Notes: a model not told the origin generated them from the sequence alone. DNA of 64,000 bases from an uncultured Thermoanaerobaculia bacterium (GCA_964613915.1 CAZTIW010000014.1:30928-94927), one strand, 5' to 3'. Shown: positions 380 to 21,067, counted from the stretch's first letter. Translations and numbers: made by a program.

Positions 380-2965
380 ATGCGTCACCTCGCCGCTCCG
401 CGCCTCCGCGTCGCCGCCCCCGCGCTGTTCGCGCTGCTCGCGCTCGCTCTCGACGTCGCGATCGCGACGGCGTCCGGCCAGGCTCCCAAGAACTTCGGTC
501 GCGACCGCTCGGTGGACATCGTTCACGCGCGCATCCAGCTCGCGCTGGACATCCCGTCGGAGACCATTCGTGGCGCGACCGAGCTGACGGTGCGCGGCAT
601 CGCCGGCTCGACCGCCGAGGCGGTCTTCGACGCCGTGCGCTTCGATGTCACGAGCGTCACCGCGGGTGACGCGCCGGCCGCGCATGACAACGACGGGCAG
701 ACGCTGCGCGTGACGCTCGCGCCGCCGCTCGCCGAGGGGGAGGATCGCGTCATCCGCATCTCCTACTCGGCCCGCCCGCGCAACGGGCTGTACTTCGTTC
801 ACGGACCGGGCGCGCGGCGCGACCTCGACCAGTGCTGGTCGCAGGGCGAGACCATGGAGAACCGTCACTGGTTCCCGGTTCACGACGATCCGTCCGAGCG
901 CATGACGTCGGAGACGGTCATCACCGTGCCCGAGCCGCTGGCCGTCGTCTCCAACGGCCCGCTGCTCTCGGTGACGCCAGCCGGACCGGGCCTGCGCACG
1001 TTCCACCACCGCATGGACTTCCCGCACGTTCCGTATCTGGTGTCGATCGCCGTGGGCGACTGGGCGACGCGGTCGGAGACCTGGGAGGGCAAGGAACTCA
1101 CGTACCACGTGCCGCGCGATCGCGAGGCCGACATGGACCGGTCGTTCGCGAACACCGCCAGAATCCTGAGCTTCCTGTCGAAGGAGACGGGCGTCCCCTA
1201 CCCGTACCCCGTGTACCGGCAGACCTGCGTCTCCGACTACACGTTCGGCGGCATGGAGAACATCGCCGCGACCACGCTGACGGACAGGACGCTGCACGAC
1301 GAGCGCGCGCATTCGGACTGGACCTCGGACAGTCTCGTTGCTCACGAGGCGGCGCATCAGTGGTTCGGCGACTACGTGACCTGCCGCGACTGGAGCGACA
1401 TCTGGCTGAACGAGGGCTTCGCCACGTACTACGCCGCGCTCTCGATGGGGGAGCTGCTCGGTCCCGACCAGCTCGTCGTCGAGCTCGATGGCATGCGGCA
1501 GAACGCGATCGACGCCGACCGGGGGGACAAGCGCCGGCCCGTCGTCACGAACCGCTGGCATGACGAGATGGAGCTCTTCGACGGCCATGCCTACGCGAAG
1601 GGCGGGATGATCCTGCACGCGCTGCGGCGCGAGCTCGGCGATGACGGGTACCGTCGCAGCGTGACCGCCTGGCTGAAGCGGTTCGCCGGGTCGTCCGCGA
1701 ACACGCACGACTTCATCTCGGTGATCGAGGAGCAGACGGGCCGCGACGTGTCGCGCTTCTTCGACCAGTGGATCTTCGGCAGCGGTCAGCCCGACCTTGC
1801 CGTCTCGTGGACGTGGAAGGACGGTTCGTGCGCCGTCACGATCGTGCAGGGCCAGGCGGCGGACGACCCCGACCGTCTCTTCAACGTCCCGCTCGACCTG
1901 CAAGTGCTCGGCGAAGGGCTCGCGACGGATCGCTCGGTCCGGCTCAGCCGGCGCGAGGAGACGTTCCACGTTCCCTGCGAGACGCGCCCCGAGGCGGTCG
2001 TGGTGGATCCGCAGGGCTGGCTCCTGCGCACGATCAAGATGGACCGGCCCGATCGCGAGGCCGCGTGGGTCCTGCGCCACGCCCCGCACCTGCTGGCGCG
2101 CCTGGAGGCCGCGCGCGAGCTGAAGGAGTCTGCCGGGCTCGCCGGGGCGCACGAGGCGCTGGTGGACGCGGCGCGGTCGGCGCCGGCATGGGCGTTGCGT
2201 CGCGCGGCCTGCGAGTCGCTCGAGCGCTCGGGCCCGGGCGGCGCGGCCGTGCTCATCGGCGTGCTCGAGAGCGACGCGGACACGCGCGTGCGCACGGCGG
2301 CGGCGGCGGCGCTGGCCTCGCATCGAACGCCCGCGGCGCAAGCGGCGCTGACGCGCGCCCTGGCCGGCGCGCCGTCCTACGCGGTTCGCGGGGCGGCGGC
2401 GCGCTCGCTCGGACGCTTCGACGATCCCGCTCTCGATCGCGTTCTCGAGGCAGCGGCCTCGCAGCGCTCGCATCGCGAAGAGGTCCTCGGTGGCTGTCTC
2501 GACGCCCTCGCCCAGCGGCACTCGCCGAGGCTCCTCGCGCTCGCGCAGCGCCTCGCCTCGGCCCGCCAGCCGTACGAAGTGCGGGCACGAGCGATCGGCG
2601 CGCTCGGCCGCCTCGCGAAGAACGCGGTGGACGCCGGCGAGCGGCGCCGCGTGGTCGCGGATCTGATCGAGTGGCTGGACGAGCCTCATTATCGCGTGCG
2701 GCTCGCGGCCTCGGAGGCGCTCGTGACGGCGGCGGACGAGGCGGGACTGCCGGCGCTCCGCCGCATCGCGGCCTCGCATCCCCACGAGCTCACGCGCGCG
2801 CGCGTGGCCCAGCACGCCAAGCAGCTCGAGGCGGCCGTCGTCGCGAGCGCGAGCGTCGCCGAGGTCCGCCGGTCGCTCGAGGAAGAGCGACGGAAGCGCG
2901 AGGCGCTCGAGGAGCGCGTGCGCAAGCTCGAGGCGCGCCTCCCGCCGGCGGACGAGTCGAAGTGA
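380..2965 (+). CDS. M1-family zinc aminopeptidase (aminopeptidase N-like) with N-terminal signal peptide and C-terminal HEAT-like repeats plus coiled coil
   Basis: ATG at 380 preceded by AGGAG; GGMEN exopeptidase motif; HEAAH-X18-E zinc site; Ala/Leu-rich repeat C-terminus ending in a charged coiled coil. Confidence 0.9.
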   Translation: MRHLAAPRLRVAAPALFALLALALDVAIATASGQAPKNFGRDRSVDIVHARIQLALDIPSETIRGATELTVRGIAGSTAEAVFDAVRFDVTSVTAGDAPAAHDNDGQTLRVTLAPPLAEGEDRVIRISYSARPRNGLYFVHGPGARRDLDQCWSQGETMENRHWFPVHDDPSERMTSETVITVPEPLAVVSNGPLLSVTPAGPGLRTFHHRMDFPHVPYLVSIAVGDWATRSETWEGKELTYHVPRDREADMDRSFANTARILSFLSKETGVPYPYPVYRQTCVSDYTFGGMENIAATTLTDRTLHDERAHSDWTSDSLVAHEAAHQWFGDYVTCRDWSDIWLNEGFATYYAALSMGELLGPDQLVVELDGMRQNAIDADRGDKRRPVVTNRWHDEMELFDGHAYAKGGMILHALRRELGDDGYRRSVTAWLKRFAGSSANTHDFISVIEEQTGRDVSRFFDQWIFGSGQPDLAVSWTWKDGSCAVTIVQGQAADDPDRLFNVPLDLQVLGEGLATDRSVRLSRREETFHVPCETRPEAVVVDPQGWLLRTIKMDRPDREAAWVLRHAPHLLARLEAARELKESAGLAGAHEALVDAARSAPAWALRRAACESLERSGPGGAAVLIGVLESDADTRVRTAAAAALASHRTPAAQAALTRALAGAPSYAVRGAAARSLGRFDDPALDRVLEAAASQRSHREEVLGGCLDALAQRHSPRLLALAQRLASARQPYEVRARAIGALGRLAKNAVDAGERRRVVADLIEWLDEPHYRVRLAASEALVTAADEAGLPALRRIAASHPHELTRARVAQHAKQLEAAVVASASVAEVRRSLEEERRKREALEERVRKLEARLPPADESK

Positions 2966-3522
2966 GTCGTCGCGAGCGCTGGCGCATCATCGAGACGCGC
3001 TGGGTCGAGCGAGTCGCCTCGCGGGAACGGCACGCCCCGCTCCGCCTGTTGATGCTCATCGCGACCCGCCTCGCGGACGGCTGGGGACTCGCGATCCTGA
3101 TTCCCGCGGCCTTGCTGATCGGCGGCCGGAGCGAGGGCGTGGCGGCGGTCGGACTCGGGACGATCTCCGCCATCGCGATTGCGCTCATCGTGCATGGGAC
3201 GAAGGCGATCGTGCGCCGTCGCCGGCCCATCGGCGTCCGTGTCGGGCGGCCCATCGGCGCCCCGGATCTGCACGCGTTTCCTTCCGGGCACACGGCGCAT
3301 GCGTTCGGCATGGTCATCGTCACCGCCTGGCTCTCGCCGACGTTCGCGGCGATCACGCTCGGCGTGGCCTGCCTCGTGGGCATGTCGCGCGTGTTCTTCT
3401 GCCTGCACTACCCGACCGACGTTCTCGCCGGCGCGGCGTTCGGCCTCGCCATCGCCTGGCTGAGCCTCCTGGTCACGCGCGCGTCGGGCCTGCTCGACTG
3501 GATGGCGCGCCTGGCGGGGTGA
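2962..3522 (+). CDS. PAP2-family (type 2 phosphatidic acid phosphatase-like) membrane phosphatase
   Basis: GTG start overlapping the aminopeptidase stop (GTGA); PAP2 motifs KAIVRRRRP, PSGH, SRVFFCLHYPTD; several TM helices. Confidence 0.75.
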   Translation: MSRRERWRIIETRWVERVASRERHAPLRLLMLIATRLADGWGLAILIPAALLIGGRSEGVAAVGLGTISAIAIALIVHGTKAIVRRRRPIGVRVGRPIGAPDLHAFPSGHTAHAFGMVIVTAWLSPTFAAITLGVACLVGMSRVFFCLHYPTDVLAGAAFGLAIAWLSLLVTRASGLLDWMARLAG

Positions 3523-4424: not shown

Positions 4425-5969
4425 ATGCCAGCACCCGCATCCCTCAGCATCCAGCTCGACCGCGACTCCGCGATCCCGCTCGTGGAGCAGCTCGCGACCA
4501 GCATTCGCCACGGCATCGAGTCGGGCGTGCTCGTGCCGGGCACGCGGCTGCCGTCCACGCGGACGCTCGCCGCGCGCCTCGGCCTGCACCGGCAGACGAT
4601 CGTGGACGCGTACCGGCGGATCGAGAGCGACGGCATGCTCGAGCAGCGCCGCGGCTCGGGCGCCTTCATCACGGCGCCATCGCCCGGCGGCGCCTGCGTT
4701 CCGGGCGATGCCGCGCGCGCGGGCGAGCGGGTCTCGCAAGCGCTGCTGTCCTACGAGCGGCGCGCGGGCCGGCCGCCCCTTCCGGCGTCGAGCCGGGACG
4801 CGCTGGACCTGGCCGGCCTCGTCCCTCACGAGCGTGACTACCCGTCGGAGGCCTTTCAGGAGAGCATGCGGAGCGCCCTGGCGCGCCGCGGCGGCAAGGT
4901 CCTCGGCTATGGTCCCGCCGCGGGCGATCCCGAACTGCGCGAGGTTCTCGCGAAGCGCCTGAGAGCGCGCGGCATGAAGGTGGACGCCGCGGGCTTGCTG
5001 ATCGTGGGCGGCGCGCAGCAAGGGCTCGACCTGCTGTTTCGCGCGATGCTCGATCCCGGCGATGCGGTGCTGACCGAGGCGCCGACGTACCACATGTGCC
5101 TGGATCTCCTGGCGTTTCACCGCTGCCGCGTCGCGCCCGTGCCCGTGCTGCCGCGAGAGGAATCCGGCCTGTCCTCGCTCGACGCGGCGGCGCTCGCGGA
5201 GGCGCTCGACCGCCATCGGCCCGTGCTCGCCTACGTCATGCCGACGTTCCAGAACCCGACCGGCCTCACGCTCGATCTCGCCGCCCGTCGCACGCTGGCG
5301 CGCACCCTCGCGGACGCGAAGGTCGTGCTCGTGGAGGACGACTACGAGGCGGACATGAGGCATGGCGGCGAGGCCCTGCCCGCCGTCTCGTCGCTGTCCG
5401 AGAGCGGCGACTCGGCGTACATCGGCACGCTCAGCAAGGCGCTGTTCCCGGGCCTGCGCGTCGGCTGGATCGCGGGGAGCCCGGACGTGCTGGCGCGCGT
5501 CGCGAAGGTCAAGCGCGTCTCGGATCTCTCGGGGCCCGTCGTGCTGCAGGCCGTGGCCGCGGACCTGCTCGAGAGCGGCGCCTACGACCGTCACGTGACG
5601 AACACCGTCGCGGAGGCAGCCGATCGCATGCGCGCGCTGCGCGCGGCTCTCGAGGCGCAGATGCCGGAGGGCTGCCGCATCACGCGGCCGCTGGGCGGGC
5701 ACGTGGCCTGGCTCGAGGCGCCCGCGCTCTCCGGGCGGGCCATCGCCGAGAAGGCGGCGGCGCGCGGCGTGCTCGTGACGCCGGGCGAGGACTTCTTCGC
5801 CGGGCCGGCGGCCAGCCCCGCCGTGCGCGTGTCCATCGCGCGCATCGCCCCCGGGGACGTGGAGCGGGCGGCCGAGCGGCTGGCGCGAGGCGTGGCGGAT
5901 GCGGTGCAGGAGGCGCGGGGGCGCGCGGCGCGGCGCGGTCGCGACGTGGATTCCCCCGTGGCGGTGTGA
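4425..5969 (+). CDS. MocR/GabR-type transcriptional regulator (GntR HTH + class-I aminotransferase-like domain), PdxR-like by context
   Basis: N-terminal GntR winged HTH (TRLPSTRTLAARLGLHRQTIVDAYRRIESDG); aminotransferase-like domain with LSKALFPGLRVGWIAG; directly upstream of pdxS/pdxT. Confidence 0.85.
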   Translation: MPAPASLSIQLDRDSAIPLVEQLATSIRHGIESGVLVPGTRLPSTRTLAARLGLHRQTIVDAYRRIESDGMLEQRRGSGAFITAPSPGGACVPGDAARAGERVSQALLSYERRAGRPPLPASSRDALDLAGLVPHERDYPSEAFQESMRSALARRGGKVLGYGPAAGDPELREVLAKRLRARGMKVDAAGLLIVGGAQQGLDLLFRAMLDPGDAVLTEAPTYHMCLDLLAFHRCRVAPVPVLPREESGLSSLDAAALAEALDRHRPVLAYVMPTFQNPTGLTLDLAARRTLARTLADAKVVLVEDDYEADMRHGGEALPAVSSLSESGDSAYIGTLSKALFPGLRVGWIAGSPDVLARVAKVKRVSDLSGPVVLQAVAADLLESGAYDRHVTNTVAEAADRMRALRAALEAQMPEGCRITRPLGGHVAWLEAPALSGRAIAEKAAARGVLVTPGEDFFAGPAASPAVRVSIARIAPGDVERAAERLARGVADAVQEARGRAARRGRDVDSPVAV

Positions 5970-6026: not shown

Positions 6027-6917
6027 ATGAGTTCTGCTGCGAACGAACTGCCGAGGCTCAAGACGGGACTGGCCGAGATGCTCAAGGGTGGCGTCATCAT
6101 GGACGTCACGGACGCCACGCAGGCGCGCATCGCCGAGGACGCGGGCGCGTGCGCCGTCATGGCGCTCGAGCGCGTGCCGTCCGACATCCGCAAGGAAGGC
6201 GGCGTCGCGCGCATGTCGCCCGTCGAGAAGGTCGAGGAGATCATGAAGACGGTCTCCATCCCCGTCATGGCCAAGTGCCGCATCGGCCACTTCGTCGAGG
6301 CGCTCATGCTCCAGGAGATGGGCGTGGACTTCATTGACGAGTCCGAGGTCCTGACGCCCGCGGACGAGCAGCATCACGTGGACAAGCACGCGTTCAAGAC
6401 GCCGTTCGTGTGCGGCGCGCGGAACCTGGGCGAGGCGCTGCGCCGCATTTCCGAGGGCGCCGCGATGATGCGCACGAAGGGCGAGGCAGGCACGGGCAAC
6501 ATCGTCGAGGCCGTGCGTCACATGCGCGCGGTCACGGGCGAGATCCGGCGGCTCGGCGCCCTGCGCGACGACGAGCTCATGGACGCCGCGAAGGAGCTGC
6601 GCGCGCCGTACGAGCTCGTGCGCCGCGTGGCCCGCGAGGGGTGCCTGCCCGTGCCGAACTTCGCGGCGGGCGGCGTCGCGACCCCTGCGGACGCGGCCCT
6701 CATGATGCACCTGGGCGCCGAGTCGGTCTTCGTGGGATCGGGCATCTTCAAGTCGTCGGATCCCTCGCAGCGCGCCAAGGCCATCGTCCAGGCCGTCACG
6801 CACTGGAAGGACGCCAGCGTCCTGGTGGATGTCAGCCGCGGCCTCAAGGAGGCGATGCTCGGCATCGAGATCAGCACGATCCCGCCGGGCGAGCGGCTGG
6901 CCGAGCGCGGATGGTGA
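6027..6917 (+). CDS. pdxS: Pyridoxal 5-prime-phosphate synthase, synthase subunit PdxS
   Basis: Near full-length match to the highly conserved PdxS/SNZ sequence ([41 protein letters not shown]). Confidence 0.95.
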
Positions 6918-7561
6918 GCGAGGCGCCACTCCGGGTCGGCGTCCTCGCGCTCCAGGGAGACTTCGCGGCGCATGCCGGCGCGCTCGAGCGCGCGGCGACC
7001 GCCGCCGGGCTCGCGTGCGATGTCCGCGAGGTGCGGCGTCTGCCGGATCTCGCCGGGATCGAGGCGCTGGTCCTGCCGGGCGGCGAGAGCACGACGCTGC
7101 TGAAGCTCCTGTCCATCGAGGATCTGGGTCTGGCGATCCGGCGCTTCGTGACGGAGCAGGGGGGCGCGGTCTTCGGCACGTGCGCCGGGGCCATCCTCGT
7201 GAGCCGCCACGTCCGCAGTCCCGACCAGGCGTCGCTCGAACTGCTGGACGCGACGATCGAGCGGAACGCGTATGGCCGGCAGGTGGATTCCTTCATCACG
7301 ACGATCGAGCCGCAGCCGGGCAGCGGACTCGGCTCGCGGCCGATCGAGGCCGTCTTCATCCGTGCGCCGCGGTTTCTGGCGACCGGACCCGGCGTGGACG
7401 TGCTCGCGCGCCACGGCGGCGAGCCCGTGCTGGTGAGAGAAGGGCGCGTCCTGGCGGCGACGTTCCACCCGGAGATGACCCCCGATGACCGCATCCACGC
7501 GACGTTCCTGCGCGGGGTTCGGGCGGCGGCCGTCACTCCTGTCGCGAGCCCTCGTCGCTGA
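6911..7561 (+). CDS. pdxT: Pyridoxal 5-prime-phosphate synthase, glutaminase subunit PdxT
   Basis: ATG overlapping the pdxS stop (ATGGTGA); class-I glutamine amidotransferase with LPGGESTT and GTCAG nucleophile motif. Confidence 0.9.
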
Positions 7562-8588
7562 CCCTCGCGAACTCCAGGAGAAGCGCCGAGATCGCCGTGC
7601 CCACGTCCTCCGGGCCCGAGACCGGACCGGGCAGGAACGCGAAGGATCCGTGACGCCACGTCAGCAGCGTGCTGAGAGCCTGCATCGAGTCGGGCGCCCC
7701 CTCGAGCTCGGCGCGCATGACGCGACCCCCGCTGACGAAGATCTTCCCGACGACGGACTCGCGCGCGAGCACCAGCGAACCGGGCTTCTTCTCGTACTCC
7801 AGTAGCGAGAGCACCGTCGGCACGCCGATGTCGTCGAGGACGCCGCGCAGCGACACGTGGCGGCCCGCGCGGCCCTCGCGCGGCCCGACGCGGCGCAGGC
7901 GGATCATGAGCTCCTCGTCCGTGAACGGCTTCGGAATGAAGTCGCGCACGCCGCGGCGGAAGGCCTGCGCGCGCAGCGTCGCGTCGGCGTCCTCGCCCAT
8001 CAGCACGACCGCCACGTCGGAGAGCGATGGCTCGCTGGAGAGGAGCTTCAGGACGAGCAGGGGATTCGAGCCCTGGGCTTGCGTGTCCGCCAGGAGAATG
8101 TCGGGCACGCGATCGCGGCAGGCCTTGACGGCGGCGGCGAGGCTCTCCTCGGCGCGGGCGTCGAAGCCGGCCGTGTTGAGATTGTTGACGAGCCGCTCGC
8201 GCAGGGGCTCGCTGCGATCCAGGATCACGATGGCCAGCGGTTCGTCCTCGATGGGGCCGGACATGCCCTGCTCGAGCGAAGCGACGAAGTCCAGCCACCC
8301 CGCCGGCGGCGCGCCGTCCATCTCGAGGCCGATGCCGGGCGAGCGGCCGACCATGCGGGCCGTCGGCTCGTCGAGGACATGGGCGACGTGCGCCGAGAAC
8401 GACACCTGGGATCGGTTCGGGAGCGTGACGGTGACGGCGGCCTTCGTGCCCGCGCCGACGGCCTCGGCAGTCGGCACGTACAGGCCGTGGCGCGTGACAT
8501 CGGTCGTGGTCGCCGAGAGCACGCCGCTTGCATGACGCACCTCGACGGGGCAGGTGGCGGCCAGCCTCTTGTCGCGGTCGTTCTTCAT
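7533..8588 (-). CDS. Response regulator with N-terminal PilZ-like domain, receiver domain and C-terminal DUF4388-like domain
   Basis: ATG at 8588 overlaps the upstream GNAT stop; PilZ-like RDKRL...DVTRHG...GIGLEMD; receiver domain ending KPF; C-terminal segment resembling DUF4388. The Arg-rich 5-prime part of the long ORF was excluded. Confidence 0.7.
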   Translation of the reverse strand: MKNDRDKRLAATCPVEVRHASGVLSATTTDVTRHGLYVPTAEAVGAGTKAAVTVTLPNRSQVSFSAHVAHVLDEPTARMVGRSPGIGLEMDGAPPAGWLDFVASLEQGMSGPIEDEPLAIVILDRSEPLRERLVNNLNTAGFDARAEESLAAAVKACRDRVPDILLADTQAQGSNPLLVLKLLSSEPSLSDVAVVLMGEDADATLRAQAFRRGVRDFIPKPFTDEELMIRLRRVGPREGRAGRHVSLRGVLDDIGVPTVLSLLEYEKKPGSLVLARESVVGKIFVSGGRVMRAELEGAPDSMQALSTLLTWRHGSFAFLPGPVSGPEDVGTAISALLLEFARVSDEGSRQE

Positions 8589-9106
8589 CGTCGGTCCGGG
8601 CTCCGCGAGGTCTCCGGGGGCGCGGCGGGCGGCCGGGCCGGCCGGAGGTCGAGCCCGAAGAATACAGGGCCGGGCAGCGGATTGGGCGTGTAGGGAGGGA
8701 TCTGGCGGAAGCCGAGGGACTCGTAGAGGGCGATCGCGCCCGACATGTGCGCCAGCGTGTCGAGGACCATCTCGTCGTGGCCCGCGACTCGCGCGGCATC
8801 CAGCACGGCGACCGCCAGCGCGCGTCCGAGGCCGCGGCGCCGGAACGCGGGCCGCACGTACATGCGCTTCATCTCGCAGCGTCCGGCCGTGGTATCGAGG
8901 GGGCGAAGCGCGACGCATCCCGCGAGGCCGTCGGGCTCGCGCGCCAGCAGGATGACGCCGAGCGGGGGCGCGTAGCGGCCCGGCAGCGAGGCCAGTTCGG
9001 CGTCGAACCCCTGAAAGCAGAGGTCGAAGCCGAGGTCGGTTGCGTATTCGAGAAAGAGTTCGCGCGTCGAGGCGAGATCGGCGGCACTCCTGGCCGGCGC
9101 GATCAT
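8585..9106 (-). CDS. GNAT-family N-acetyltransferase
   Basis: 173 aa; acetyl-CoA binding core RPAFRRRGLGRAL; overlaps neighbours by 4 bp on both sides. Confidence 0.8.
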   Translation of the reverse strand: MIAPARSAADLASTRELFLEYATDLGFDLCFQGFDAELASLPGRYAPPLGVILLAREPDGLAGCVALRPLDTTAGRCEMKRMYVRPAFRRRGLGRALAVAVLDAARVAGHDEMVLDTLAHMSGAIALYESLGFRQIPPYTPNPLPGPVFFGLDLRPARPPAAPPETSRSPDRR

Positions 9107-9801
9107 CGCGTGCCCCAGCCACGACTCGACGGCGGCAGCGGCTGCTTCCCGTTGCTGCCGACGCGGGCGATCGGATCGGCGCCGGACGGATCAGCCGTCG
9201 CGGGCCCTGCCCCGCCGGCGCCGCTGCGGGCCATCGTGTTCAGGAGCCAGCCTCCGAAGGCCAGGGCGCCCAGCCACGTGGCGAAGGCCAGCACGCGCAG
9301 GAATCCCGCCAGCGCGTCGTCGGCGGCGAGCAGGCCCAGCGAGTCGAGGAGGTAGTTCCAGTCGTGAATGGGCTCATCGGTCATGCCGATGAGCGCGAGC
9401 GCCTGGTCGTCGGCGTCATCCACGTACGTCGCGAGGTTCCACATCGAGAACGACAGCCACGCGAGCGCGACCGAGGCGCCGAACCAGTCGCGCTGCGGCT
9501 CGCCGTCCTTGCGGTAGAGCAACAGCACGGCGCCTGCGGCGATGGGCGCGAGGATTTGCGACAGGCTCCCCCCCGCGATCGACATCCACTGACCGAGGGG
9601 CGCGAAGAGCACGTGGCCGAGTTCGTGGATGCCGAACGTCACGCCCCCGAACAGGAGGCTCGCGTGCTCGGGATCCCGCAGGTGGCGCACGCCGACGACG
9701 GCGAGGTACAGCAGGAGCGGGGCGCGCACGATCCACCAGCGGCCGCGAGCCCAGGCGCGGGCGTCATCCGCGATCGCGGCCGCGATCTCGCGCGCGGTCA
9801 C
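9103..9801 (-). CDS. Polytopic membrane protein with HELGH (HExxH) motif, putative membrane-embedded metalloprotease
   Basis: GTG at 9801 overlapping the cstA stop; hydrophobic throughout; HELGH inside a predicted TM region; start is inferred. Confidence 0.5.
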   Translation of the reverse strand: MTAREIAAAIADDARAWARGRWWIVRAPLLLYLAVVGVRHLRDPEHASLLFGGVTFGIHELGHVLFAPLGQWMSIAGGSLSQILAPIAAGAVLLLYRKDGEPQRDWFGASVALAWLSFSMWNLATYVDDADDQALALIGMTDEPIHDWNYLLDSLGLLAADDALAGFLRVLAFATWLGALAFGGWLLNTMARSGAGGAGPATADPSGADPIARVGSNGKQPLPPSSRGWGTR

Positions 9802-11498
9802 GCGAGCGCCGGCGCGGGCCCGGGCGTCGCGTCGCCGGGAGGCGCGCCGCCGCCGAACGCGGCACGCGCGGACTCGAACGCGAGGAGCGCGGCGAGCGCG
9901 AGGAGGGCGATGGCCGTCACGCGCACGAGCATGTCGGACGCGACGCGCGCCTGGATGACGAGCGACCAGATGGTCACGGCGAGCACGAAGAGCATGGGCA
10001 GCGCCACGAACCAGGACGGGCGGCGCCGGCGGCGCAGCCACGTCGCGATCGCCATGAGCGTGAGCGCCGCGAGCAACTGGTTGGCCGTGCCGAACAGCGA
10101 CCAGAAGCGCATGTACGGCGGGGGAGAGCCCGGCACGGCCGGCAGGATCACCAGCACGGCGAGCGGGGGCAGGAGCGTCAGCACGGTGGCGCCGAGAGCC
10201 GCCGCGCGACCCGTCCACCCGACGAGTTCCTGCACGATGTACCGGCCCAGGCGCGTCGCGACGTCAATCGTGTCGAACACGAAGGTCGAGAACGCCATCG
10301 CGCCGAACGTGGCGGCGAACAGCAGGTGCTGCTCGCCGACGAGCGCGGCGATGTACTGGCCCAGGCCGTCACCGTAGATGCGGCCCGGCGATCGCCCCGC
10401 GATGTCTCCGGGCGCCAGGATCATGATGGTCGAGAGCGCGATGATCGCGACGAAGCTCTCGAGCAGCATGCCGCCATAGCCGACGGATCGGCAGTCGCTC
10501 TCGCGCGACACCTGCTTGCTGGTCGTGCCCGAGCAGACCAGGCCGTGGAAGCCCGAGCACGCCCCGCACGCGATCGTCACGAAGAGGAAGGGAAACAGCG
10601 CGCCCATCGGGTTCGGCGCGCCCGAGGCTGTCGTCGCGGTGAACCCCGTGAAGGCCGGTTGCGCGATGCCGAGGCCCGAGAACAGGATGCCGACGACACC
10701 CGCGCCGAGCGCGAGGTAGAGCACGAAGCCGCCAAGATACCCGCGCGGCTGCAGCAGCAGCCACATCGGCAGCAGGGCCGCGACGGCGCAGTAGACCAGG
10801 ATGATGAGATCCCAGTGCCGCGCGCTCATGAGCAAGAGCGTCGAGCCGCGCGTGCCGAGCCACACCGCGGCGAGCGTCGCGGGAACGAAGATCACCGTCA
10901 TGAGCCAGAGCGGCGGAGACAGGAGCTTCTGGATGACGCCCATCACGAGCGCGAGCGACAGGTACAGCGCGCTCGCGAGGGCCACGGCCCCGCCGGCGTT
11001 GAAGCTGACGCCCGGCGCGATGTCGGACGTGACGCCGACGAAGGTCTTGGCGGTGATGTCGGTGAACGCGACGAGCACGTAGACCAGCGCGAGCCAGATG
11101 AAGAGGAGCATCGCCAGCCGCGCGCGCGAGCCCGAGTTGGCCTTCACGACCTCCGCGATGGACTGGCCGCCATGGCGGACCGAGGCGATGAGCGACGAGA
11201 AGTCGTGGACCGCGCCGATCAGGATGCCACCCAGGACGATCCAGAGGATGCAGGGCACCCAGCCGAACATCTGGCACGCGAGGATCGGCCCGGCGATGGG
11301 GCCGGCGGCGGCGATCGCGGAGAAGTGCTGGCCCAGCAGGTAGAAGCGGCGGGTCGGCACGAAGTCCTTGCCGTCCTGCTTCGTGACCGCGGGCGTCGGC
11401 CGGCTGTCATCCAGCCGCCAGGAGCGGGCGATGAAGCGTCCCCAGGTCAGGTACCCGGCGACGAGCGCGGCCAGCGACAGGAGCGTGATGCCGATCAT
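9798..11498 (-). CDS. cstA: Carbon starvation protein A family transporter (CstA)
   Basis: 566 aa, polytopic; N-terminal region closely resembles CstA (HFSAIAAAGPIAGPILACQMFGWVP, LGGILIGAVHDF). Confidence 0.85.
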   Translation of the reverse strand: MIGITLLSLAALVAGYLTWGRFIARSWRLDDSRPTPAVTKQDGKDFVPTRRFYLLGQHFSAIAAAGPIAGPILACQMFGWVPCILWIVLGGILIGAVHDFSSLIASVRHGGQSIAEVVKANSGSRARLAMLLFIWLALVYVLVAFTDITAKTFVGVTSDIAPGVSFNAGGAVALASALYLSLALVMGVIQKLLSPPLWLMTVIFVPATLAAVWLGTRGSTLLLMSARHWDLIILVYCAVAALLPMWLLLQPRGYLGGFVLYLALGAGVVGILFSGLGIAQPAFTGFTATTASGAPNPMGALFPFLFVTIACGACSGFHGLVCSGTTSKQVSRESDCRSVGYGGMLLESFVAIIALSTIMILAPGDIAGRSPGRIYGDGLGQYIAALVGEQHLLFAATFGAMAFSTFVFDTIDVATRLGRYIVQELVGWTGRAAALGATVLTLLPPLAVLVILPAVPGSPPPYMRFWSLFGTANQLLAALTLMAIATWLRRRRRPSWFVALPMLFVLAVTIWSLVIQARVASDMLVRVTAIALLALAALLAFESARAAFGGGAPPGDATPGPAPALA

Positions 11499-11639
11499 CC
11501 CGCCGATGATCGCATCCCTCGCGGCGTGGCGAAATCACGACTTTCGAGGCCATGCGGGCCCGGCGGGGAGCGGCCCGGCGGGGCTTGCAGCCGTCCGTCC
11601 GACCGTGGGGAAACCGCCGCACCCTGGCATGATCGGGGG

Positions 11640-11981
11640 ATGAGCGGGACCCAGTCCATCCGTGCGTGCCGGGAGAGCGACGTTGCCGAGCGGGCCCTCG
11701 TGTACGTCGAGGAGGGCGGGAAGAACTTCCTCGTCACGCGTTTCGGCGGGGAACTGCGCGCGTACCGGAACCTCTGCAAGCACCAGTACCTCGTGATGGA
11801 GGGCTGTGACGTGGACGAGGACTCGTTCATGTGCCCGTACCACACGGTGCGCTACTTTCTCGCGACCGGCGAGGTCAAGGACGACTCCGGGTTCATGGGC
11901 ATCGAGGCGCTCACGCGGTATCCCGTCCGCGTCGTGGACGGCTGGGTGCACCTCGAGGTCCCGACGAACGAGCGCTGGTGA
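11640..11981 (+). CDS. Small Rieske [2Fe-2S] domain protein
   Basis: CKH-X16-CPYH Rieske ligand pattern; 113 aa. Confidence 0.75.
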   Translation: MSGTQSIRACRESDVAERALVYVEEGGKNFLVTRFGGELRAYRNLCKHQYLVMEGCDVDEDSFMCPYHTVRYFLATGEVKDDSGFMGIEALTRYPVRVVDGWVHLEVPTNERW

Positions 11982-13030
11982 CGGACGACGCGCCCGGTCC
12001 CGTCGAGCACCACCCGCGCGCGCTCTCGCGCGAGCGGCGCTCGCCGACGGCGGACGCGTTCGACCCGGCGGTGCTCAAGGCCGAATGGACGCTCCCGGCG
12101 GCCACGCCCCTGCCGGCGCTGCTCGCCGAGCTGCGCGAGCGCGTGGGCGACGACGCGGCGTTCGAGCGCCTGATGCGCCATGGCGGCATCCATCTGGACC
12201 GCCGGCGTCTCTCGGACTTCGCCGAGCCCCCGGCGACGCTGCCGGCGGGCACGGCCGTCATCGCGTACTGGTTCACGCGCGAGCCCGAGCCGCTGGTCTT
12301 GCCCGACGAGCTGGTGCTGTTGGACGAGGGGGGGCTCGTGGCGGTCAGCAAGCCTCCCTGGTGGACGACCCAGGGCACGCGCGCGAGCCGGTTCGCGTCG
12401 CTCGAGCGCGCCCTGCGCGAGCGTCTCGCATGTCCCGCGCTCACGCCGATTCACCGGCTCGATCGCGAGACGACGGGCGTGCTGCTCTTCGCGCGCGACT
12501 CGCGCGCGGCCTCCGAGGCCGGCAAGCAGTTCATCGCGAGGAGCATTCGCAAGGAGTACCTGTGCGTGACGCCCGACTTGCCCGGCGGACCGAGCGCCTG
12601 GGAGGTCAAGGGCCGCATGGCGCGCATCGAACATCCGAGCCACTCGCTCTTCGCGCTCGATCCCGGCGTGTCGGGGCAGGGCGACGCCGGCGGGCCCGGC
12701 GTCTGGAGCGCCACGCGGTTCGAGATCGCCTGGCGTGATGGTGCGCGCGGCCTCGCGGTCGTTCGCGCCCAGCCGCTGACGGGACGCACGCATCAGCTCC
12801 GCGTTCATCTGGCCGCCAGCGATCGGCCGATCATCGGCGACTCGCTCTACGGCGAGGGGCACGTGCCGGACGCGCCGTTCGTCACGGAGCGCATGCTCCT
12901 GCACGCCCGCGCGCTGACGCTGCGCGCGGGCGGCGTCGAGAGGACCATCGAGGCTCCGGTCCCCGGCGATTTTCCGCCACCTCCGAGCGATGCGGTCGCG
13001 GTTCCCTCGGCGGCGGCCCTTCCGGCATGA
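11978..13030 (+). CDS. RluA-family pseudouridine synthase
   Basis: Catalytic motif HRLDRETTGVLLFA; GTG start overlapping the Rieske stop (start position uncertain). Confidence 0.8.
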   Translation: MTDDAPGPVEHHPRALSRERRSPTADAFDPAVLKAEWTLPAATPLPALLAELRERVGDDAAFERLMRHGGIHLDRRRLSDFAEPPATLPAGTAVIAYWFTREPEPLVLPDELVLLDEGGLVAVSKPPWWTTQGTRASRFASLERALRERLACPALTPIHRLDRETTGVLLFARDSRAASEAGKQFIARSIRKEYLCVTPDLPGGPSAWEVKGRMARIEHPSHSLFALDPGVSGQGDAGGPGVWSATRFEIAWRDGARGLAVVRAQPLTGRTHQLRVHLAASDRPIIGDSLYGEGHVPDAPFVTERMLLHARALTLRAGGVERTIEAPVPGDFPPPPSDAVAVPSAAALPA

Positions 13031-15697: not shown

Positions 15698-16010
15698 GCG
15701 CGCCGCGCCCCGGCCCCACGCGGCCGGGGCGAACCGAAGCGGCGCCCGCGTGTGCCTGGCTTGACGGCGCCGCACGAGGTGATCGACCGGAATTGATGCC
15801 TTCCGGCGCTTGCTGGACGCGGCGGGGTGGCCGCCTTACCTTGCCTCCTACAGCGACAGTCTCGAGCGTGCGGGGAGTGGACGGGGGCGGGCCGGGGTCG
15901 GCCGGCCCACGGCCGGGCCCGTGCTGGCGCGCGCGAGGAGGGCCGGACGCGGCCTGCGGTGAGTTCTCGGATCCCCGGCGTGACGCGCCGCCGCCGACAG
16001 CGAGGCCTTC

Positions 16011-18077
16011 ATGACACTTCTTCGCTCGATGACGCTCGTCCTGCTCGCCGTCGCGCCGGCGCTCGGCGCCGCCGCGGCGCGCCTCGAGATCGCTCCCGCC
16101 GGCCGGCGCGCCACGCCTGCCGGCGCGTGGGCGCTCCCGTCCGCGGGCGAGGCGACCGCGCCGGGGCACGAACTCGCCGCGCGCGTCACGCTCGGCCCTG
16201 GCGCGGTGCTCGAGGTCATGCTCGCGGACGGCTCGACGGCGCGCTTCGTGCCCCTGTCGATCGCCGCGCGCGGAGTTCCGTCCGCGGTTCCGGCCGCGCT
16301 CCCCGCCGCGAAGGCGCGCCTGCACGTCGGCGAGGCCGGTGGCATCCATCTTCGCGACGAGATCCTGTTCGTCGCGGAGACGTTCGCGGGCGTGGACGAG
16401 GTCTTCACGCTCGGCAGCGGCGAGGTCAAGCACGACCTGCTCGTGCACGGGGCGGCGCTGCGCGCGCTCGGCGGCGGCGACATCGTCGCGAGCTGGGCGC
16501 TCGAGCTGGCGCCGGGCGTGGTCGCGGTGGAGGGCGTGGCGGGGGAGTTCGAGTTCCGTGACGGGGCGTCCGGGTTCCTGGGGAAACTCCCCGCGCCGCT
16601 CGTGGCCGACGCGGACGACACGCACTGGTCCGCGGGCGTGGCGCGCCTCGAGATCACGGGAGCGCCCGGCCAGCAAGTCCTGGCGCTGGTCGTGCCGCAG
16701 GCGTGGGCGTTCGACCCCGCGCGCGCGCTGCCGCTGCGGCTCGATCCGACGGTGTCGATCCAGCCAGCGAGCAGCGCCGAGACGGGCTGGGTGGACGAGA
16801 CGGGCACGCGGCTCACGGGCGCCATCAACTCGGGTTCCCTGAGCCTCGTGGGCTTCGGCTCCGACGTTCGTGGTTACTCCGAGTTCGACACGTCGGGCAT
16901 CCCCGACGCCGCCACGATCACCGACGTGCGCCTGCAGGTCTGGCTCTCGAACCACGACAACCCCGGCGACATCGCGGTGCCGCTGCGCACCGAGGTCAAG
17001 CACGTCGCCGCGCGCGCGAGCGCCACGCCGGCCGCGCTCCACGCGGCCATCGGTCCGCTGTTCGGCGGGCGGCTCTACCTCTTCGAGAACGTCCCGAACA
17101 CGGGGCCGGACTTCTGCCCGGCGTCCTACGTGTTCCGGGACTACGATCTCGGTCCGCTCGCGGACGCCGATCTCGCGGCGCAGCTCCCGCAGGACTTCTT
17201 CACGGTGGGCTTCACGAGCCAGATCGTCACGGATCCGCTCTTCGACCACATTGACTACATCGGCTTCCCCGAGGTCGTGAACAACCCGTTCGGGTGTCCG
17301 ACGACCGACTTCCCCGGCACGCGGATCACGCTGGTCGTGTCGTACGTGACGAACACCCCGCCCGTCTGCGATGCCGGCGGCCCGTACGCGCCCGAGTGTC
17401 CGCGGGGTCCGGTCACGATCGATGGCAGCGGGTCGTCGGATGCGGATGGCGACGTGCTGACGTTCGCCTGGTCCACGGATTGTCCTGGGTCCCTCGCGGA
17501 CGCCACGGCCGCGATCACGACGCTGGATCTCGACGGTGGTTGCGCCGTGGACTGCACCGTCACGCTCGCGGTCAGCGACGGCGTGTCCACGGTCTCGTGC
17601 AGCCGGCCCGTGTCGGCGCGCGACGTCACGCCCCCGGTCATCGTGAGCTCGAACCTGGCGGCCCTCTGCCTCTGGCCCCCGCGCCACGACATGTTCTGCC
17701 TGGGGCTTCCGTCCGATCACGTCGTCGCGCGCGATGCCTGCCAGCCGGACGTCATCATGCGCTGGACGGGCTGCGTCTCGGACCAGCCCGACGAGGCGCG
17801 CGAGCCTGGCCGCCCCGAGAACGGTGACGGCCACTTCGCGCGCGACTGCCAGCTCAACCCGGACGGCACGCTCTGCGTTCGCGTGGAGCGCGCGGGCTCC
17901 GACCCGGTCGCCGGCCGCAACACGTTCGACGGCCGTCGCTACGGCGTGAGCATCGAGGTGGACGACGGCTGCGGCAACATCGTGACCACGAGCGGCACGC
18001 TGCACGTCCCCCATGATCGGCGCGGCGGTTCCGGTGGCCAGGACGATCCCTGCCAGCGCGGGAACAAGCAGAAGTAG
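16011..18077 (+). CDS. Large secreted hypothetical protein
   Basis: Signal peptide MTLLRSMTLVLLAVAPALGAAAA; Asp/Gly/Thr-rich beta-like composition; Cys-containing C-terminal region. Confidence 0.55.
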   Translation: MTLLRSMTLVLLAVAPALGAAAARLEIAPAGRRATPAGAWALPSAGEATAPGHELAARVTLGPGAVLEVMLADGSTARFVPLSIAARGVPSAVPAALPAAKARLHVGEAGGIHLRDEILFVAETFAGVDEVFTLGSGEVKHDLLVHGAALRALGGGDIVASWALELAPGVVAVEGVAGEFEFRDGASGFLGKLPAPLVADADDTHWSAGVARLEITGAPGQQVLALVVPQAWAFDPARALPLRLDPTVSIQPASSAETGWVDETGTRLTGAINSGSLSLVGFGSDVRGYSEFDTSGIPDAATITDVRLQVWLSNHDNPGDIAVPLRTEVKHVAARASATPAALHAAIGPLFGGRLYLFENVPNTGPDFCPASYVFRDYDLGPLADADLAAQLPQDFFTVGFTSQIVTDPLFDHIDYIGFPEVVNNPFGCPTTDFPGTRITLVVSYVTNTPPVCDAGGPYAPECPRGPVTIDGSGSSDADGDVLTFAWSTDCPGSLADATAAITTLDLDGGCAVDCTVTLAVSDGVSTVSCSRPVSARDVTPPVIVSSNLAALCLWPPRHDMFCLGLPSDHVVARDACQPDVIMRWTGCVSDQPDEAREPGRPENGDGHFARDCQLNPDGTLCVRVERAGSDPVAGRNTFDGRRYGVSIEVDDGCGNIVTTSGTLHVPHDRRGGSGGQDDPCQRGNKQK

Positions 18078-18108: not shown

Positions 18109-20100
18109 TCACTCCGGGAGCGAGAGCGTCTCGCAGGCGTTCGCGACGCGCAGGTCGAAGAACTGCAGCCAGGCGGAGGTGTCCACTTCGGTGAACGTCG
18201 TGGTCGCCTGGCCCTCCGGGTTGATCGGGCGGAAGTAGTCCGTCGGATCGAGCCATGCCTTGTTCAGGTGGAAGTGCTCGTCCGCGCCGAGGGCGCGAAC
18301 GCCGCTCCAGTTCAGCGTCACGGCATCGCCGACATGGCTGGCGAAGAGGACGGCGCCCACGCCCGCGGGCGGGCCGGTCTCGGTGATGTCCGTGACCGCA
18401 GTCGCGCACAGGATGGTCGCGGCGCCGCCGCCGACGGGCCCGCGCGGGCGGCATGTCGTGGCCGCGTTCATGTCCTCCGCTTCCACGACGTAGAAGTACG
18501 TCCGGCCGGGCTCGGCCTTGTCGTCGTGGAAGCCCAGCCCGGTCAGTCCTCTCGCGATGGGCGCGCCGAGCACGGCGTCCGCACAGGACACCTCGCTGCG
18601 GTACACGTTGTAGAAGCCGGTGCCGCTCGCGTCGTGGAAGGTGGCCGGGTTCCAGGAGATCCAGATGCCGCCGTTGCACCTGTCGGGATCGGCCGCCACC
18701 GGAGGCTGGAAGTCCGGCGGGGCGTCCACGGTCACCGTGAGGCTCAGGTCCACCCGGCACGCCGGGTCGGTCGAGCAGGTCACCGCGAGATCGTAGGTCG
18801 TGTCCTGCGCGGGCGAGACCGTAGCGACCGGCCCGGGCCACGTCGTCGTGCCATCGGTCCACGAGGCGTCCACGGCGCCCGTGCAGTCGGTCAGCGCGAC
18901 CCCGCTGCCGTCGAGCGTGGTGGAGTCGCCCACGCAGATGGCGCGATCGGCCGGGGGAGCCGTGATGGAGGACGCGCAGCCGGGCGTGAAGCTGCCGCAG
19001 TCCACGTTGTCCACCGACGAGAAGATCACGACGGTGTGACGGGCGGTCCCGCCTGGCGGGATGATGTCCGCATCCACCGGGAGGTAGCCCGCGAACCAGA
19101 GCACCGCGGAGTCCGAGTCCGGGCAGCAAGCGCCCTCGATGGGAGCGTAGTTCCACGGCGACGCGCGGAGCGGACTCCAGCGGCCGTAGATGAGCCGATC
19201 GGGCCGGCCGGTGTCGGGGATGCCCGCGATGGTCGTCGTGCTCGTGAGGTTGCTGAAGATGGGCGTGCCGGCGTTGTTCTGGATGCGGTAGAAGTCGAGG
19301 ATCTCGGCCGGGAGCATCTCGTGCTCGAGGTCCCAGGTTCTCTGCACGGTGGGGGGGTTGCACGTGACGTTCGCGTAAAGCGGGCCGTCATCCGTCGCGT
19401 TCTGGTAGTCGATCTGCCAGCGCACCCCGACCGAGACATCCTGCGACGAGGACGCCATGTTCGTCGTGGACAGCGTCAGGCGCACGCCGGCGTTGGACTC
19501 GACCGTGCCGAACGCGACGATCTCCTGGCGGAGCGTGCACGTGATGCCCGGCGCGGGCGAGACGGTCCACTCCTGTTCGAGGCCGATGCTGTTCGGCTCC
19601 ATGGCCGTGTCGGGCGGATCGAAGACGCAGGCCTGCCCGCCTGTCGGGCTGTTGTACGTGATCGCCTGATCGTGGAAGCGCCATGAGATGTCCGACGTGC
19701 CCGGGGAAGCGCCGGCGCCGCCGAAGATGACGTTCTGCGGTGCGCCCGTGAGCGCGGTGACCGAGTGGCTCGCGCCGGTTCGCGCGGTGAACGCGCCGTT
19801 CGCGCAGGACAGGTACACGTCGTAGAAGGGATGCGTCTGCCCCAGCGTGCCGGTCGCGCACGGCGCGGCGCAGCCCAGAGCGTTCGGGTGATCCGGCAGC
19901 ACGAGACCCGGCACGTCCCGCTCGTCGAACGAGGAGGGGGCCTCGACGGCGTGGAGCTTGCCGGGCGGGAGCGGCAACGAAGATGGCGCCGCGACGACGG
20001 CGCGCTCGCGGGCATCCTGGGCGAGGGCGCCGGACGCGACGGCGAGGCAGGCGAATCCCATCAGGAGGCGCCTCCTGATCGGACGTGATGGCGTATTCAT
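18109..20100 (-). CDS. Large secreted hypothetical protein with fibronectin-III-like segment
   Basis: Start set at MNTPSRPIRRRLLMGFACLAVASGALA (signal peptide); Arg-rich upstream extension excluded; FN3-like GTGFYNVYRSEV...TYFYVVEAED. Confidence 0.55.
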   Translation of the reverse strand: MNTPSRPIRRRLLMGFACLAVASGALAQDARERAVVAAPSSLPLPPGKLHAVEAPSSFDERDVPGLVLPDHPNALGCAAPCATGTLGQTHPFYDVYLSCANGAFTARTGASHSVTALTGAPQNVIFGGAGASPGTSDISWRFHDQAITYNSPTGGQACVFDPPDTAMEPNSIGLEQEWTVSPAPGITCTLRQEIVAFGTVESNAGVRLTLSTTNMASSSQDVSVGVRWQIDYQNATDDGPLYANVTCNPPTVQRTWDLEHEMLPAEILDFYRIQNNAGTPIFSNLTSTTTIAGIPDTGRPDRLIYGRWSPLRASPWNYAPIEGACCPDSDSAVLWFAGYLPVDADIIPPGGTARHTVVIFSSVDNVDCGSFTPGCASSITAPPADRAICVGDSTTLDGSGVALTDCTGAVDASWTDGTTTWPGPVATVSPAQDTTYDLAVTCSTDPACRVDLSLTVTVDAPPDFQPPVAADPDRCNGGIWISWNPATFHDASGTGFYNVYRSEVSCADAVLGAPIARGLTGLGFHDDKAEPGRTYFYVVEAEDMNAATTCRPRGPVGGGAATILCATAVTDITETGPPAGVGAVLFASHVGDAVTLNWSGVRALGADEHFHLNKAWLDPTDYFRPINPEGQATTTFTEVDTSAWLQFFDLRVANACETLSLPE

Positions 20101-20302
20101 GGCACCCCTTCCCCGAGGGCCGACCCTGCATCTCGTGGAGCGAGCGCAGGCTGACTCGGCCGAATGTACTCCCATGACCGCGGGGCGGCCAACGCGGCGC
20201 GACGACCGAAGCGTCGCATGCGCGTGGCTCCGCCCGCGACTTGCGCTGGCGGCGCGCATCCGGTAGCTTCGTGACAACGATTTCGACGCACGGAGGCACG
20301 CG

Positions 20303-21067
20303 ATGCGCGCTTGGATTCCTGTTGCCCTCACCGCCCTGAGCCTCACCCTTGCCGCGCCGGCTGACGCCGAGACGGCGGCTCAGCCCGCGACGCCAGCGGC
20401 TCCCTCATCGTCCGCGAGCCCGGCGCCCCCCGTCGCGGTGACGATCGTCGCGCCGGCGCAGGCCCCGCAAGCTGAGGGCAGCGCCATGGCGGAGGCCATG
20501 GCGCGACGGATCAACGAGGCCATCGCGTCGGCGCCCATCGCCATCGGGCCGCTCGCCGAAGCCGCGGTGCGCGAGGGTGTCGGACGCATGGTCGCGCGCG
20601 AAATGTTGGACGGACGCCTCTCGCAGGTGCCCGTCGTGGCGGATGAAGCGGCGACCTCGACCGAGTTCCTGGCCTGGCGCGACTACCTGCGCGAGAAGTT
20701 CGATCGCCGCATGCCGCGCAACGAGGAGATCGGCGGGCGCGCCGCCCTCGGCGTCCGGCTCGGAAGCCCCGGTCAGCTCGACGAAGAGGTCGTTCCGGCC
20801 GCCGTCCTGCAGTCGCTCTCGACGTGGAATCAGGAGGGCGCGCTCGTGACCTCGATCGTGCCCGGTTCGCCGGCGGAACAGGCGGGCATGCTCGCTGGCG
20901 ACGTCGTCGTGCAGTTCGCCGGCATCTGGGTGGATTCGTCCGCGCTCCTCGTGCGCCTCGCGTCCCGCGCTCAGGTCGATCGCGAGGTCGAGGTCTGGGT
21001 GCTGCGCGGCGGCGAGATCGAGCGCCTGTTCGTGACGCCCGCCGATCGCTCCGTCCTCGGCAACTGA
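20303..21067 (+). CDS. Secreted PDZ-domain protein
   Basis: Signal peptide MRAWIPVALTALSLTLAAPADA; C-terminal PDZ-like block (GALVTSIVPGSPAEQAGMLAGDVVVQFAG). Confidence 0.6.
   Translation: MRAWIPVALTALSLTLAAPADAETAAQPATPAAPSSSASPAPPVAVTIVAPAQAPQAEGSAMAEAMARRINEAIASAPIAIGPLAEAAVREGVGRMVAREMLDGRLSQVPVVADEAATSTEFLAWRDYLREKFDRRMPRNEEIGGRAALGVRLGSPGQLDEEVVPAAVLQSLSTWNQEGALVTSIVPGSPAEQAGMLAGDVVVQFAGIWVDSSALLVRLASRAQVDREVEVWVLRGGEIERLFVTPADRSVLGN

Follow-up and report, generated by a model that had tools for sequence, protein, structure and literature searches.

In Myxococcus xanthus two regulators of motility combine PilZ domains with other modules; PixA (MXAN_1087) is a PilZ-receiver protein, while PixB (MXAN_2604) carries two PilZ domains followed by a GNAT domain (PMC8316039). 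The GNAT domain of PixB is required for motility regulation and is sufficient during growth, neither protein needs to bind cyclic di-GMP (c-di-GMP) for its role in motility, and genetic data suggest that PixA is phospho-regulated (PMC8316039). In the same study PlpA shows no binding of c-di-GMP, PixB binds it despite an absent motif Ser, and no PATAN domain figures in the descriptions of the 24 PilZ proteins that were studied in M. xanthus (PMC8316039). In Synechocystis the PATAN domain is the output of PatA-type regulators and binds PilB1, as shown for PixE, and orphan members of this group have lost phosphorylation and become rewired to other inputs (10.1101/2021.06.11.447907). Fusions of ComFB to PATAN illustrate that a cyclic-dinucleotide receptor can couple to this domain (PMC12448109), and a study of SopA in M. 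xanthus lists PATAN-domain proteins among candidate motility-related proteins. Here we describe four minus-strand genes within 64,000 nt of DNA from an uncultured Thermoanaerobaculia bacterium (GCA_964613915.1 CAZTIW010000014.1:30928-94927), a stretch that in its full length is called the window. The genes encode a CstA-family transporter, a membrane protein with an HExGH motif, a GNAT acetyltransferase, and a regulator with PilZ-like, receiver and PATAN domains.

Our reading of the four genes, with a probability of about 55%, is that they are transcribed together and combine an uptake pair with a GNAT-PATAN-adaptor pair whose adaptor responds to a partner and not to c-di-GMP. In the first pair cstA and the membrane-embedded HExGH protein, a putative zinc hydrolase, would form an uptake or envelope module. 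The second pair would consist of the GNAT acetyltransferase and a cytoplasmic PilZ-receiver-PATAN adaptor under the control of a partner and not of c-di-GMP, as the degenerate PilZ domain and the atypical receiver suggest. As functional partner of the adaptor we propose the conserved GNAT neighbour, so that the two would make up a 'split' form of the single-polypeptide PixB; by analogy the pair resembles a split motility regulator of the PixB/PixA type. The genes follow each other on one strand without gaps, as read from the sequence, and the features are as follows.

9798..11498, minus strand: cstA-family transporter gene, ATG start (11498->9798), 566 aa
9103..9801, minus strand: HExGH membrane protein gene, GTG start (9801->9103), 232 aa, helical; GTGA overlap with the cstA stop
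8585..9106, minus strand: GNAT N-acetyltransferase gene, ATG start (9106->8585), 173 aa; ATGA overlap with the HExGH gene
7533..8588, minus strand: regulator gene with PilZ-like, atypical receiver and PATAN (DUF4388/PatA_N) domains, ATG start (8588->7533), 351 aa; ATGA overlap with the GNAT gene
8334..8576, minus strand: PilZ-like domain of the regulator, Pfam match at aa 5-85, fold to about aa 109; c-di-GMP motifs degenerate
7896..8231, minus strand: receiver domain with atypical active site, aa 120-231; Response_reg (PF00072), 44 bits
7551..7844, minus strand: PATAN (DUF4388/PatA_N) domain, aa 249-346; PF14332, 54.8 bits against a cut-off of 25
11499..11639, no strand: 141-nt intergenic stretch separating the divergent cstA and Rieske genes, the sole non-coding gap for a four-gene promoter

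The first-pass annotation of this DNA had named the same four genes and described the last product as PilZ-receiver-DUF4388. Pfam agrees on CstA, GNAT and all three regulator domains, and the HExxH protein carries its motif as H59-E-L-G-H63 (9627-9613, minus strand). The PilZ assignment is marginal, with 24.3 bits for PF07238 against a gathering cut-off of 22.5 (E=4.2e-5, aa 5-85); TIGR02266 gives 31.8 bits (E=1.2e-7), yet under its own cut-off, and the region is predicted to fold as a beta-barrel plus helix. PF14332 is named 'PatA_N' in the precomputed annotation of the sequence collection, which is the PATAN domain. Among 11 family members receiver and PATAN were matched in every one and PilZ in 10 (best E=1e-10). 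PilZ, receiver and PATAN are each well known singly; the family combining them is small, so far placed in Myxococcota only, and no PilZ-receiver-PATAN protein was described in the literature searched. PATAN is the likely output domain of the regulator, acting through protein-protein contact, if the cyanobacterial PatA-type regulators are a guide. Binding of the window PATAN to a type IV pilus motor (PilB/PilC) would be suggested by the same analogy only.

To compare motif states we used an alignment anchored on a conserved C-x-V-E-[VF] strand. It holds eight regulator proteins of at least 50% identity, called the window clade (P0001-P0008), and a distant set of 13 genomic homologues (33-39% identity; Kofleriaceae, Polyangia and Myxococcales metagenome-assembled genomes, MAGs) together with P0009-P0011. 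Judged only by the homologues in these groups, the window would belong to a Myxococcota-type genome. The input domains decay reciprocally between the clades (L006-L019 against P0001-P0008 in the alignment table). The Kofleriaceae/Polyangia homologues have canonical RxxxR and DxSxxG motifs and mostly lack the acceptor Asp of the receiver, whereas the window clade has altered PilZ motifs and an Asp at the acceptor position. This makes the family a compact natural experiment in which one output domain is rewired from second-messenger to other control.

The N-terminal 29 residues of the window regulator are MKNDRDKRLAATCPVEVRHASGVLSATTT, followed by DVTRHG, and no R-x-x-x-R occurs in residues 1-29. 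The second motif, D30-V-T-R-H-G35, is DxTxxG and not [D/N]xSxxG, so the window protein fails at both motifs of the c-di-GMP-binding type of PilZ domain that had been proposed for it. In the alignment R8-L-A-A-T12 occupies the place where the distant homologues have RxxxR (RLITR, RVVAR and the like), and D30-V-T-R-H-G35 that of their DLSRRG-type motif. RxxxR is present in 11 and D/NxSxxG in all 13 of the distant genomic homologues, both motifs also in P0009 and P0011, and P0010 reads DLGLRG at the second. The window clade (n=8) has RxxxT or RxxxA and then DV[A/T/G]xxG, the close orthologues being DV[A/G]xxG. A clade-wide loss of the first motif as RxxxT was considered and dropped, since a displaced RxxxR (RERDR or RDRHR) stands five residues upstream, at positions 3-7, in five of the eight close orthologues; the loss is firm only for P0007 and for the window protein, which has N3 and K7. 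The distance from the displaced RxxxR to the second motif is one usual in characterised PilZ proteins.

Because the window protein has no RxxxR and a Thr for the motif Ser, it has probably lost c-di-GMP binding, and in its orthologues such a loss is uncertain. The missing Ser alone is not decisive, because PixB lacks it and binds c-di-GMP. It should be noted that 'PilZ' is not to be read as 'binds c-di-GMP', nor adjacency as a functional module.

Receiver residues were assigned by alignment to PhoB (1b00). D168 corresponds to the phospho-acceptor D53 of PhoB, and is kept in eight close orthologues and absent from that column in distant homologues; K220 corresponds to K105 and is conserved. The acidic pair that binds Mg2+ is broken, as D124/R125 take the places of PhoB E9/D10 (CheY D12/D13). 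Family-wide the PhoB D10/CheY D13 position is never acidic (R, K, C, P, G or S), and within the window clade it is Arg, Lys or Cys. At the position of PhoB T83 the window protein has G199, where six of seven close orthologues have Ser and P0007 has Ala. In CheY, a Lys or Arg in place of D13 does away with normal phosphorylation chemistry and makes activity independent of phosphorylation. Conventional phosphotransfer to the window receiver seems doubtful, because Arg125 stands at the Mg2+-binding Asp and Gly199 at the Thr/Ser position.

The same residues bear on a different explanation, a phosphorylation-controlled response regulator in which an orphan or hybrid histidine kinase phosphorylates Asp168 and thereby switches PATAN, with PilZ left as a structural relic. 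Asp occupies the acceptor column in precisely the clade whose PilZ motifs are degenerate. Of 16 other sequences, 14 have mostly Ala and some Asn, Arg or Gly there; in the remaining two, L013 and L014, an Asp falls in the next column. K220 is conserved, and in one related locus, L002, a gene for a 627-aa PAS/HATPase_c/receiver hybrid kinase (1134-3017, plus strand) separates the GNAT gene from the regulator gene; its product might be the cognate kinase in the clade with the acceptor Asp. The suggested phospho-regulation of PixA (PMC8316039) points the same way. Against this stand the Arg, Lys or Cys found clade-wide at the Mg2+-binding position, the Gly at the Thr/Ser position of the window protein, and the lack of a kinase gene adjoining the window cluster. 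We regard phosphorylation control as somewhat unlikely, and continue with a partner-regulated adaptor as the preferred reading of the regulator.

The likeness to Myxococcus PilZ regulators, pointed out in the first-pass annotation, is real when PixA (PilZ-receiver) and PixB (two PilZ domains and GNAT) are taken as the reference (PMC8316039). PixA shares the N-terminal PilZ domain followed by a receiver, is myxobacterial and has no adjacent histidine kinase. By description, however, PixA has complete c-di-GMP and phosphorylation residues, binds c-di-GMP and has no third domain; the window protein is without RxxxR, its receiver carries R125 and G199, and PATAN forms its C-terminal part. A PixA-like two-domain gene was seen beside a three-domain gene in L013 (7238-7951) and L014 (7235-7948), where a tandem PilZ-receiver-only paralogue on the plus strand, 30% identical to window residues 5-235, lies directly 5' of the PilZ-receiver-PATAN homologue.

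PixB shares the combination of PilZ and GNAT with the window pair; its PilZ domains also lack the motif Ser, and its GNAT activity is the key motility output. It differs in joining both on one chain, in retaining RxxxR in its two PilZ domains and in binding c-di-GMP, while the window GNAT is a separate gene with a 4-nt overlap, belongs to a broad stand-alone family, and has a partner with receiver and PATAN. The PatA-type regulators PatA, PixG, PixE and LsiR (Makarova et al. 2006; 10.1101/2021.06.11.447907) likewise join PATAN to a receiver, but there PATAN precedes the receiver and here it follows. The window regulator has in addition an N-terminal PilZ domain and comes from another phylum, and it has no che genes at its locus, its neighbours being the GNAT gene and pdxT. 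ComFB-PATAN proteins (PMC12448109) follow the same logic of a receptor fused to PATAN as the Kofleriaceae members with canonical PilZ motifs, with the difference that their receptor is ComFB and not PilZ and that the receptor motifs of the window protein are degenerate. The window regulator is most like a blend of PixA, PixB, PatA-type and ComFB-PATAN proteins, and has the defining features of none of them.

The GNAT protein matches Pfam Acetyltransf_1 (PF00583) with 57 bits and has an intact acetyl-CoA motif, R89-R-R-G-L-G94 ([R/Q]xxGx[G/A]). Its closest PDB sequences are 3lod and YsnE (1yx0). Stand-alone homologues number more than 2,000, and among 120 homologues the GNATs that are syntenic with the regulator form one clade of 17 leaves.

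Close relatives of the locus were found on metagenomic contigs throughout, and their gene orders are given below with that of the window.

Window: cstA, HExGH, GNAT, regulator, then convergent pdxT and pdxS
L001: cstA, GNAT, regulator, then convergent sseB, pdxT and pdxS; no HExGH gene
L087: cstA, GNAT (ATGA overlap), regulator, then convergent sseB, pdxT and pdxS; no HExGH gene
L086: cstA, HExGH (GTGA overlap), reverse-strand SMI1 gene, GNAT, regulator
L168: cstA, HExGH (ATGA overlap), GNAT; the contig stops before the regulator position
L169/L170 and L171/L172: divergent Rieske and RluA, cstA, HExGH (ATGA overlap), convergent PBP1A gene; GNAT and regulator both absent
L002: GNAT, hybrid kinase, regulator; cstA absent

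The GNAT gene adjoins the regulator in the window, L001, L086 and L087, and the equal length (2,045 bp) of the contigs with P0005 and P0134 hints at a further case of this adjacency. The regulators of these loci are 50-61% identical to that of the window. The 4-nt overlap of cstA and the HExGH gene recurs in five loci (window, L086, L168, L169/L170 and L171/L172), and L169 and L171 lack GNAT and regulator yet keep the divergent Rieske and RluA genes of the window. L002 and L171 both come from Joint Genome Institute (JGI) sample 3300032157, and their copies L003 and L172 are both in SRA run SRR9694912; they may be two loci of one organism.

The simplest account of these gene orders is that two independently conserved modules, cstA-HExGH and GNAT-regulator, were joined in the lineage of the window. 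The evidence for a functional link between GNAT and regulator is moderate, because their adjacency has outlasted changes of gene order on both flanks and a regulator divergence of 40-50%; a link of cstA to this pair is weaker. The sequences themselves establish gene structure, domains, motif states and synteny, and co-transcription, lost ligand binding, an output role of PATAN, a GNAT partnership and any tie to motility are deductions from them.

Farther out the setting is another one. For 14 regulator homologues of about 35% identity, no cstA, GNAT or HExGH gene was found within 8 kb. They have a conserved neighbourhood of their own (L004, L006-L010, L015, L016 and L018), with a divergent upstream gene that matches the L004 polyprenyl synthetase and, downstream, a gene of about 900 aa, nine loci in each case, at gaps of about 100-300 nt and 0-150 nt, respectively. 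HMG-CoA reductase and UbiE-type methyltransferase genes come after the polyprenyl synthetase gene in L004.

The cluster had initially been interpreted as a nutrient-sensing signalling module. In such an integrated unit the starvation transporter CstA, the GNAT enzyme and a c-di-GMP-binding PilZ regulator would act jointly, with c-di-GMP as the signal. Four gap-free genes on one strand fit this, as does the recurrence of the order cstA...GNAT-regulator in L001, L086 and L087 and of cstA-HExGH-GNAT in L168; a PilZ fold is predicted, and distant homologues carry the canonical c-di-GMP motifs. The window protein, however, lacks RxxxR and has DxTxxG, cstA is missing from L002 and from all 14 of the distant loci, L169 and L171 have cstA-HExGH without the signalling pair, and no diguanylate cyclase or phosphodiesterase was seen among the nearby window open reading frames (ORFs) scanned. 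The interpretation leaned on the adjacency of cstA, which is lineage-restricted and separable (L169, L171, L002), and synteny resolves the four genes into two separately kept pairs. With the homologues of about 35% identity in a different neighbourhood and the pairs occurring apart, the module is unsupported, and we consider it very unlikely.

It might also be that there is no functional unit at all, only unrelated genes packed in a compact high-GC genome, with a shared order that reflects nothing but recent common ancestry. Overlaps of 4 nt are frequent in the window, the content between cstA and regulator varies (HExGH present or absent; reverse-strand SMI1 in L086), and the families of both the GNAT and the HExGH protein are wide and occur mainly in other settings. 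Such an explanation does not sit well with a GNAT-regulator adjacency that survives the rearrangements and divergence described above, nor with a cstA-HExGH overlap retained in five independent loci, and we find it unlikely.

The junctions measure 4 nt each (GTGA at 9801-9798, ATGA at 9106-9103 and ATGA at 8588-8585), and at all three the start codon overlaps the upstream stop. The minus-strand 4-bp overlaps reported earlier hold at every junction, with the correction that the start at the first is GTG. Public gene calls have identical starts, and one 101,984-bp NCBI/Logan contig contains all four products as called genes with the same starts and ends. The overlaps are genuine and also routine in this genome. 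Window GC is about 72%, and a crude scan based on GC content at third codon positions (GC3) counted, over the 64 kb, eight more junctions of the [AG]TGA start/stop type linking high-GC3 ORFs. One of the eight (7536-7533), with an ORF antisense to pdxT behind it, is likely spurious; the remaining ones include pdxS-pdxT (GTGA, 4 nt) and several among ORFs at 30687-35967. Going by gene geometry, the four genes are probably co-transcribed. A consensus scan of 7300-12000 detected no sigma-70-like sites or minus-strand terminators, which is weak evidence for this kind of organism, and Rfam gave zero matches in 7000-12500.

Several observations weigh against the composite of an uptake pair and a partner-regulated adaptor pair. 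The argument for co-transcription and translational coupling is purely geometric, and 4-nt overlaps are common in the genome. All GNAT-regulator loci come from one narrow lineage, and shared descent may explain the adjacency. The GNAT protein belongs to a very large stand-alone enzyme family spread across many phyla, with no fusion to PilZ, receiver or PATAN in the top 120 matches, and could be a housekeeping enzyme merely co-inherited with the regulator. The displaced RxxxR of five of the eight close orthologues, together with binding by PixB without the motif Ser, makes ligand binding in the clade possible, and weak binding of c-di-GMP by the window protein through Lys7/Arg8 is possible too. 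Phosphorylation is conceivable in view of the retained Asp168 and the hybrid kinase adjoining the regulator in L002. Finally, none of the window genes scanned was one for type IV pili, polarity or c-di-GMP metabolism, and no other motility gene and no kinase gene turned up among the 20 other window ORFs covered.

We further speculate on a two-protein, PixB-like acetylation switch made of GNAT and the PilZ-receiver-PATAN protein. It would act on type IV pili or polarity in non-Cystobacterineae myxobacteria and track acetyl-CoA derived from CstA-mediated pyruvate/peptide uptake, with the input of the family switched between c-di-GMP (Kofleriaceae) and phosphorylation or a protein partner (window clade). 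We regard this as a long shot. If true, acetyl-CoA supply via CstA would account for the union of the genes in a single operon of this lineage. The GNAT neighbour, which is conserved and recalls PixB, would give a genetically separable version of a poorly understood acetyltransferase motility mechanism. Nothing here overturns current understanding; the value lies in the leads, namely the reciprocal decay of input domains and the uncharacterised HExGH family.

The HExGH protein had zero matches in Pfam and NCBIfam even at E<=1. A word-indexed search returned 216 homologues of about 190 aa, all annotated as hypothetical, and those with a named source are from Blastocatellia, Thermoanaerobaculia, Planctomycetota and Gemmatimonas MAGs. 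With an exhaustive profile search the family grew to 2,898 representatives of 50%-identity clusters at E<=1e-3, and 1,997 at E<=1e-10. Invariant residues are R26, H59-E60-x-G62-H63, Q82, P86, Y126, D129-A130 and H146-D147-W148. We found neither a Pfam model nor a PDB fold match for the family. The most economical guess is a membrane-embedded putative zinc hydrolase. Like site-2 proteases (M50), it is a small polytopic membrane protein with H-E-x-G-H in a hydrophobic helix, and its conserved downstream Asp/His could provide a third ligand. Membership of the M50/site-2 protease group was considered and found no support. What stands out is a sizeable family outside Pfam whose fold is predicted with confidence, which has no relative of solved structure, and whose metal site is plausible.

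A role of this family as the general partner of CstA was ruled out, as cstA was a neighbour in none of 80 wider-family metagenome loci; the pairing with cstA is therefore a local feature. GNAT and regulator genes were equally absent beside the wider-family HExGH genes in these 80 loci, 63 of which extend at least 400 nt upstream.

The transporter scores 424 bits with Pfam CstA (PF02554) in two stretches, the best covering profile positions 6-358 of 560. NCBIfam NF011590, 'pyruvate/proton symporter CstA', gives 223.6 bits, far under the equivalog cut-off of 1188 bits. The window CstA is thus placed in the family by Pfam, below equivalog level. E. coli CstA has about 700 aa and the NCBIfam CstA model 701 positions, against 566 aa in the window. 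The partner genes of enterobacterial CstA/BtsT are ybdD/yjiX, and the HExGH membrane protein occupies that place here. What the window protein shares with enterobacterial CstA/BtsT (PMC5847655, PMC7730263) is membership of the Pfam CstA family. Orthologues of 70-75% identity are present in L001, L086, L087, L168, L169 and L171.

FGE-sulfatase/DinB_2 and Methyltransf_33 genes precede cstA in L001 (88-2330) and L168 (418-2835), both on the plus strand, where the window has Rieske and RluA; the two genes resemble the ergothioneine genes egtB and egtD. Directly upstream of the window cstA lies a 6-codon ORF (11495-11515, minus strand; ATG CGA TCA TCG GCG GGA TGA), whose TGA overlaps the cstA ATG by 4 nt, quite possibly by coincidence.

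The cluster is bordered by a divergent Rieske gene (11640-11981, plus strand) followed by a pseudouridine synthase (RluA) gene, and on the other side by convergent pdxT (6914-7561, plus strand) and then pdxS. The 3' ends of the regulator gene (minus) and pdxT (plus) overlap convergently by 29 nt (7533-7561).

Elsewhere in the window, three long high-GC3 ORFs of 641-756 aa (15984-18077, plus strand; 18109-20379 and 23114-25039, both minus) matched no Pfam family at E<=1e-4. The plus-strand ORFs at 30687-35967 join at GTGA (about 32432-32435) and ATGA (about 34495-34498); among the proteins they encode are a PQQ/BamB-like beta-propeller and a TPR protein. A 1,077-aa protein encoded at 39559-42792 (plus strand) contains 13 thrombospondin type 3 repeats (Pfam TSP_3, 404 bits). 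Directly 5' of pdxS (6027-6917, plus strand) and pdxT lies a gene for a GntR-plus-aminotransferase (MocR-type) regulator (4425-5969, plus strand), a layout typical of PdxR-type control of vitamin B6 synthesis.

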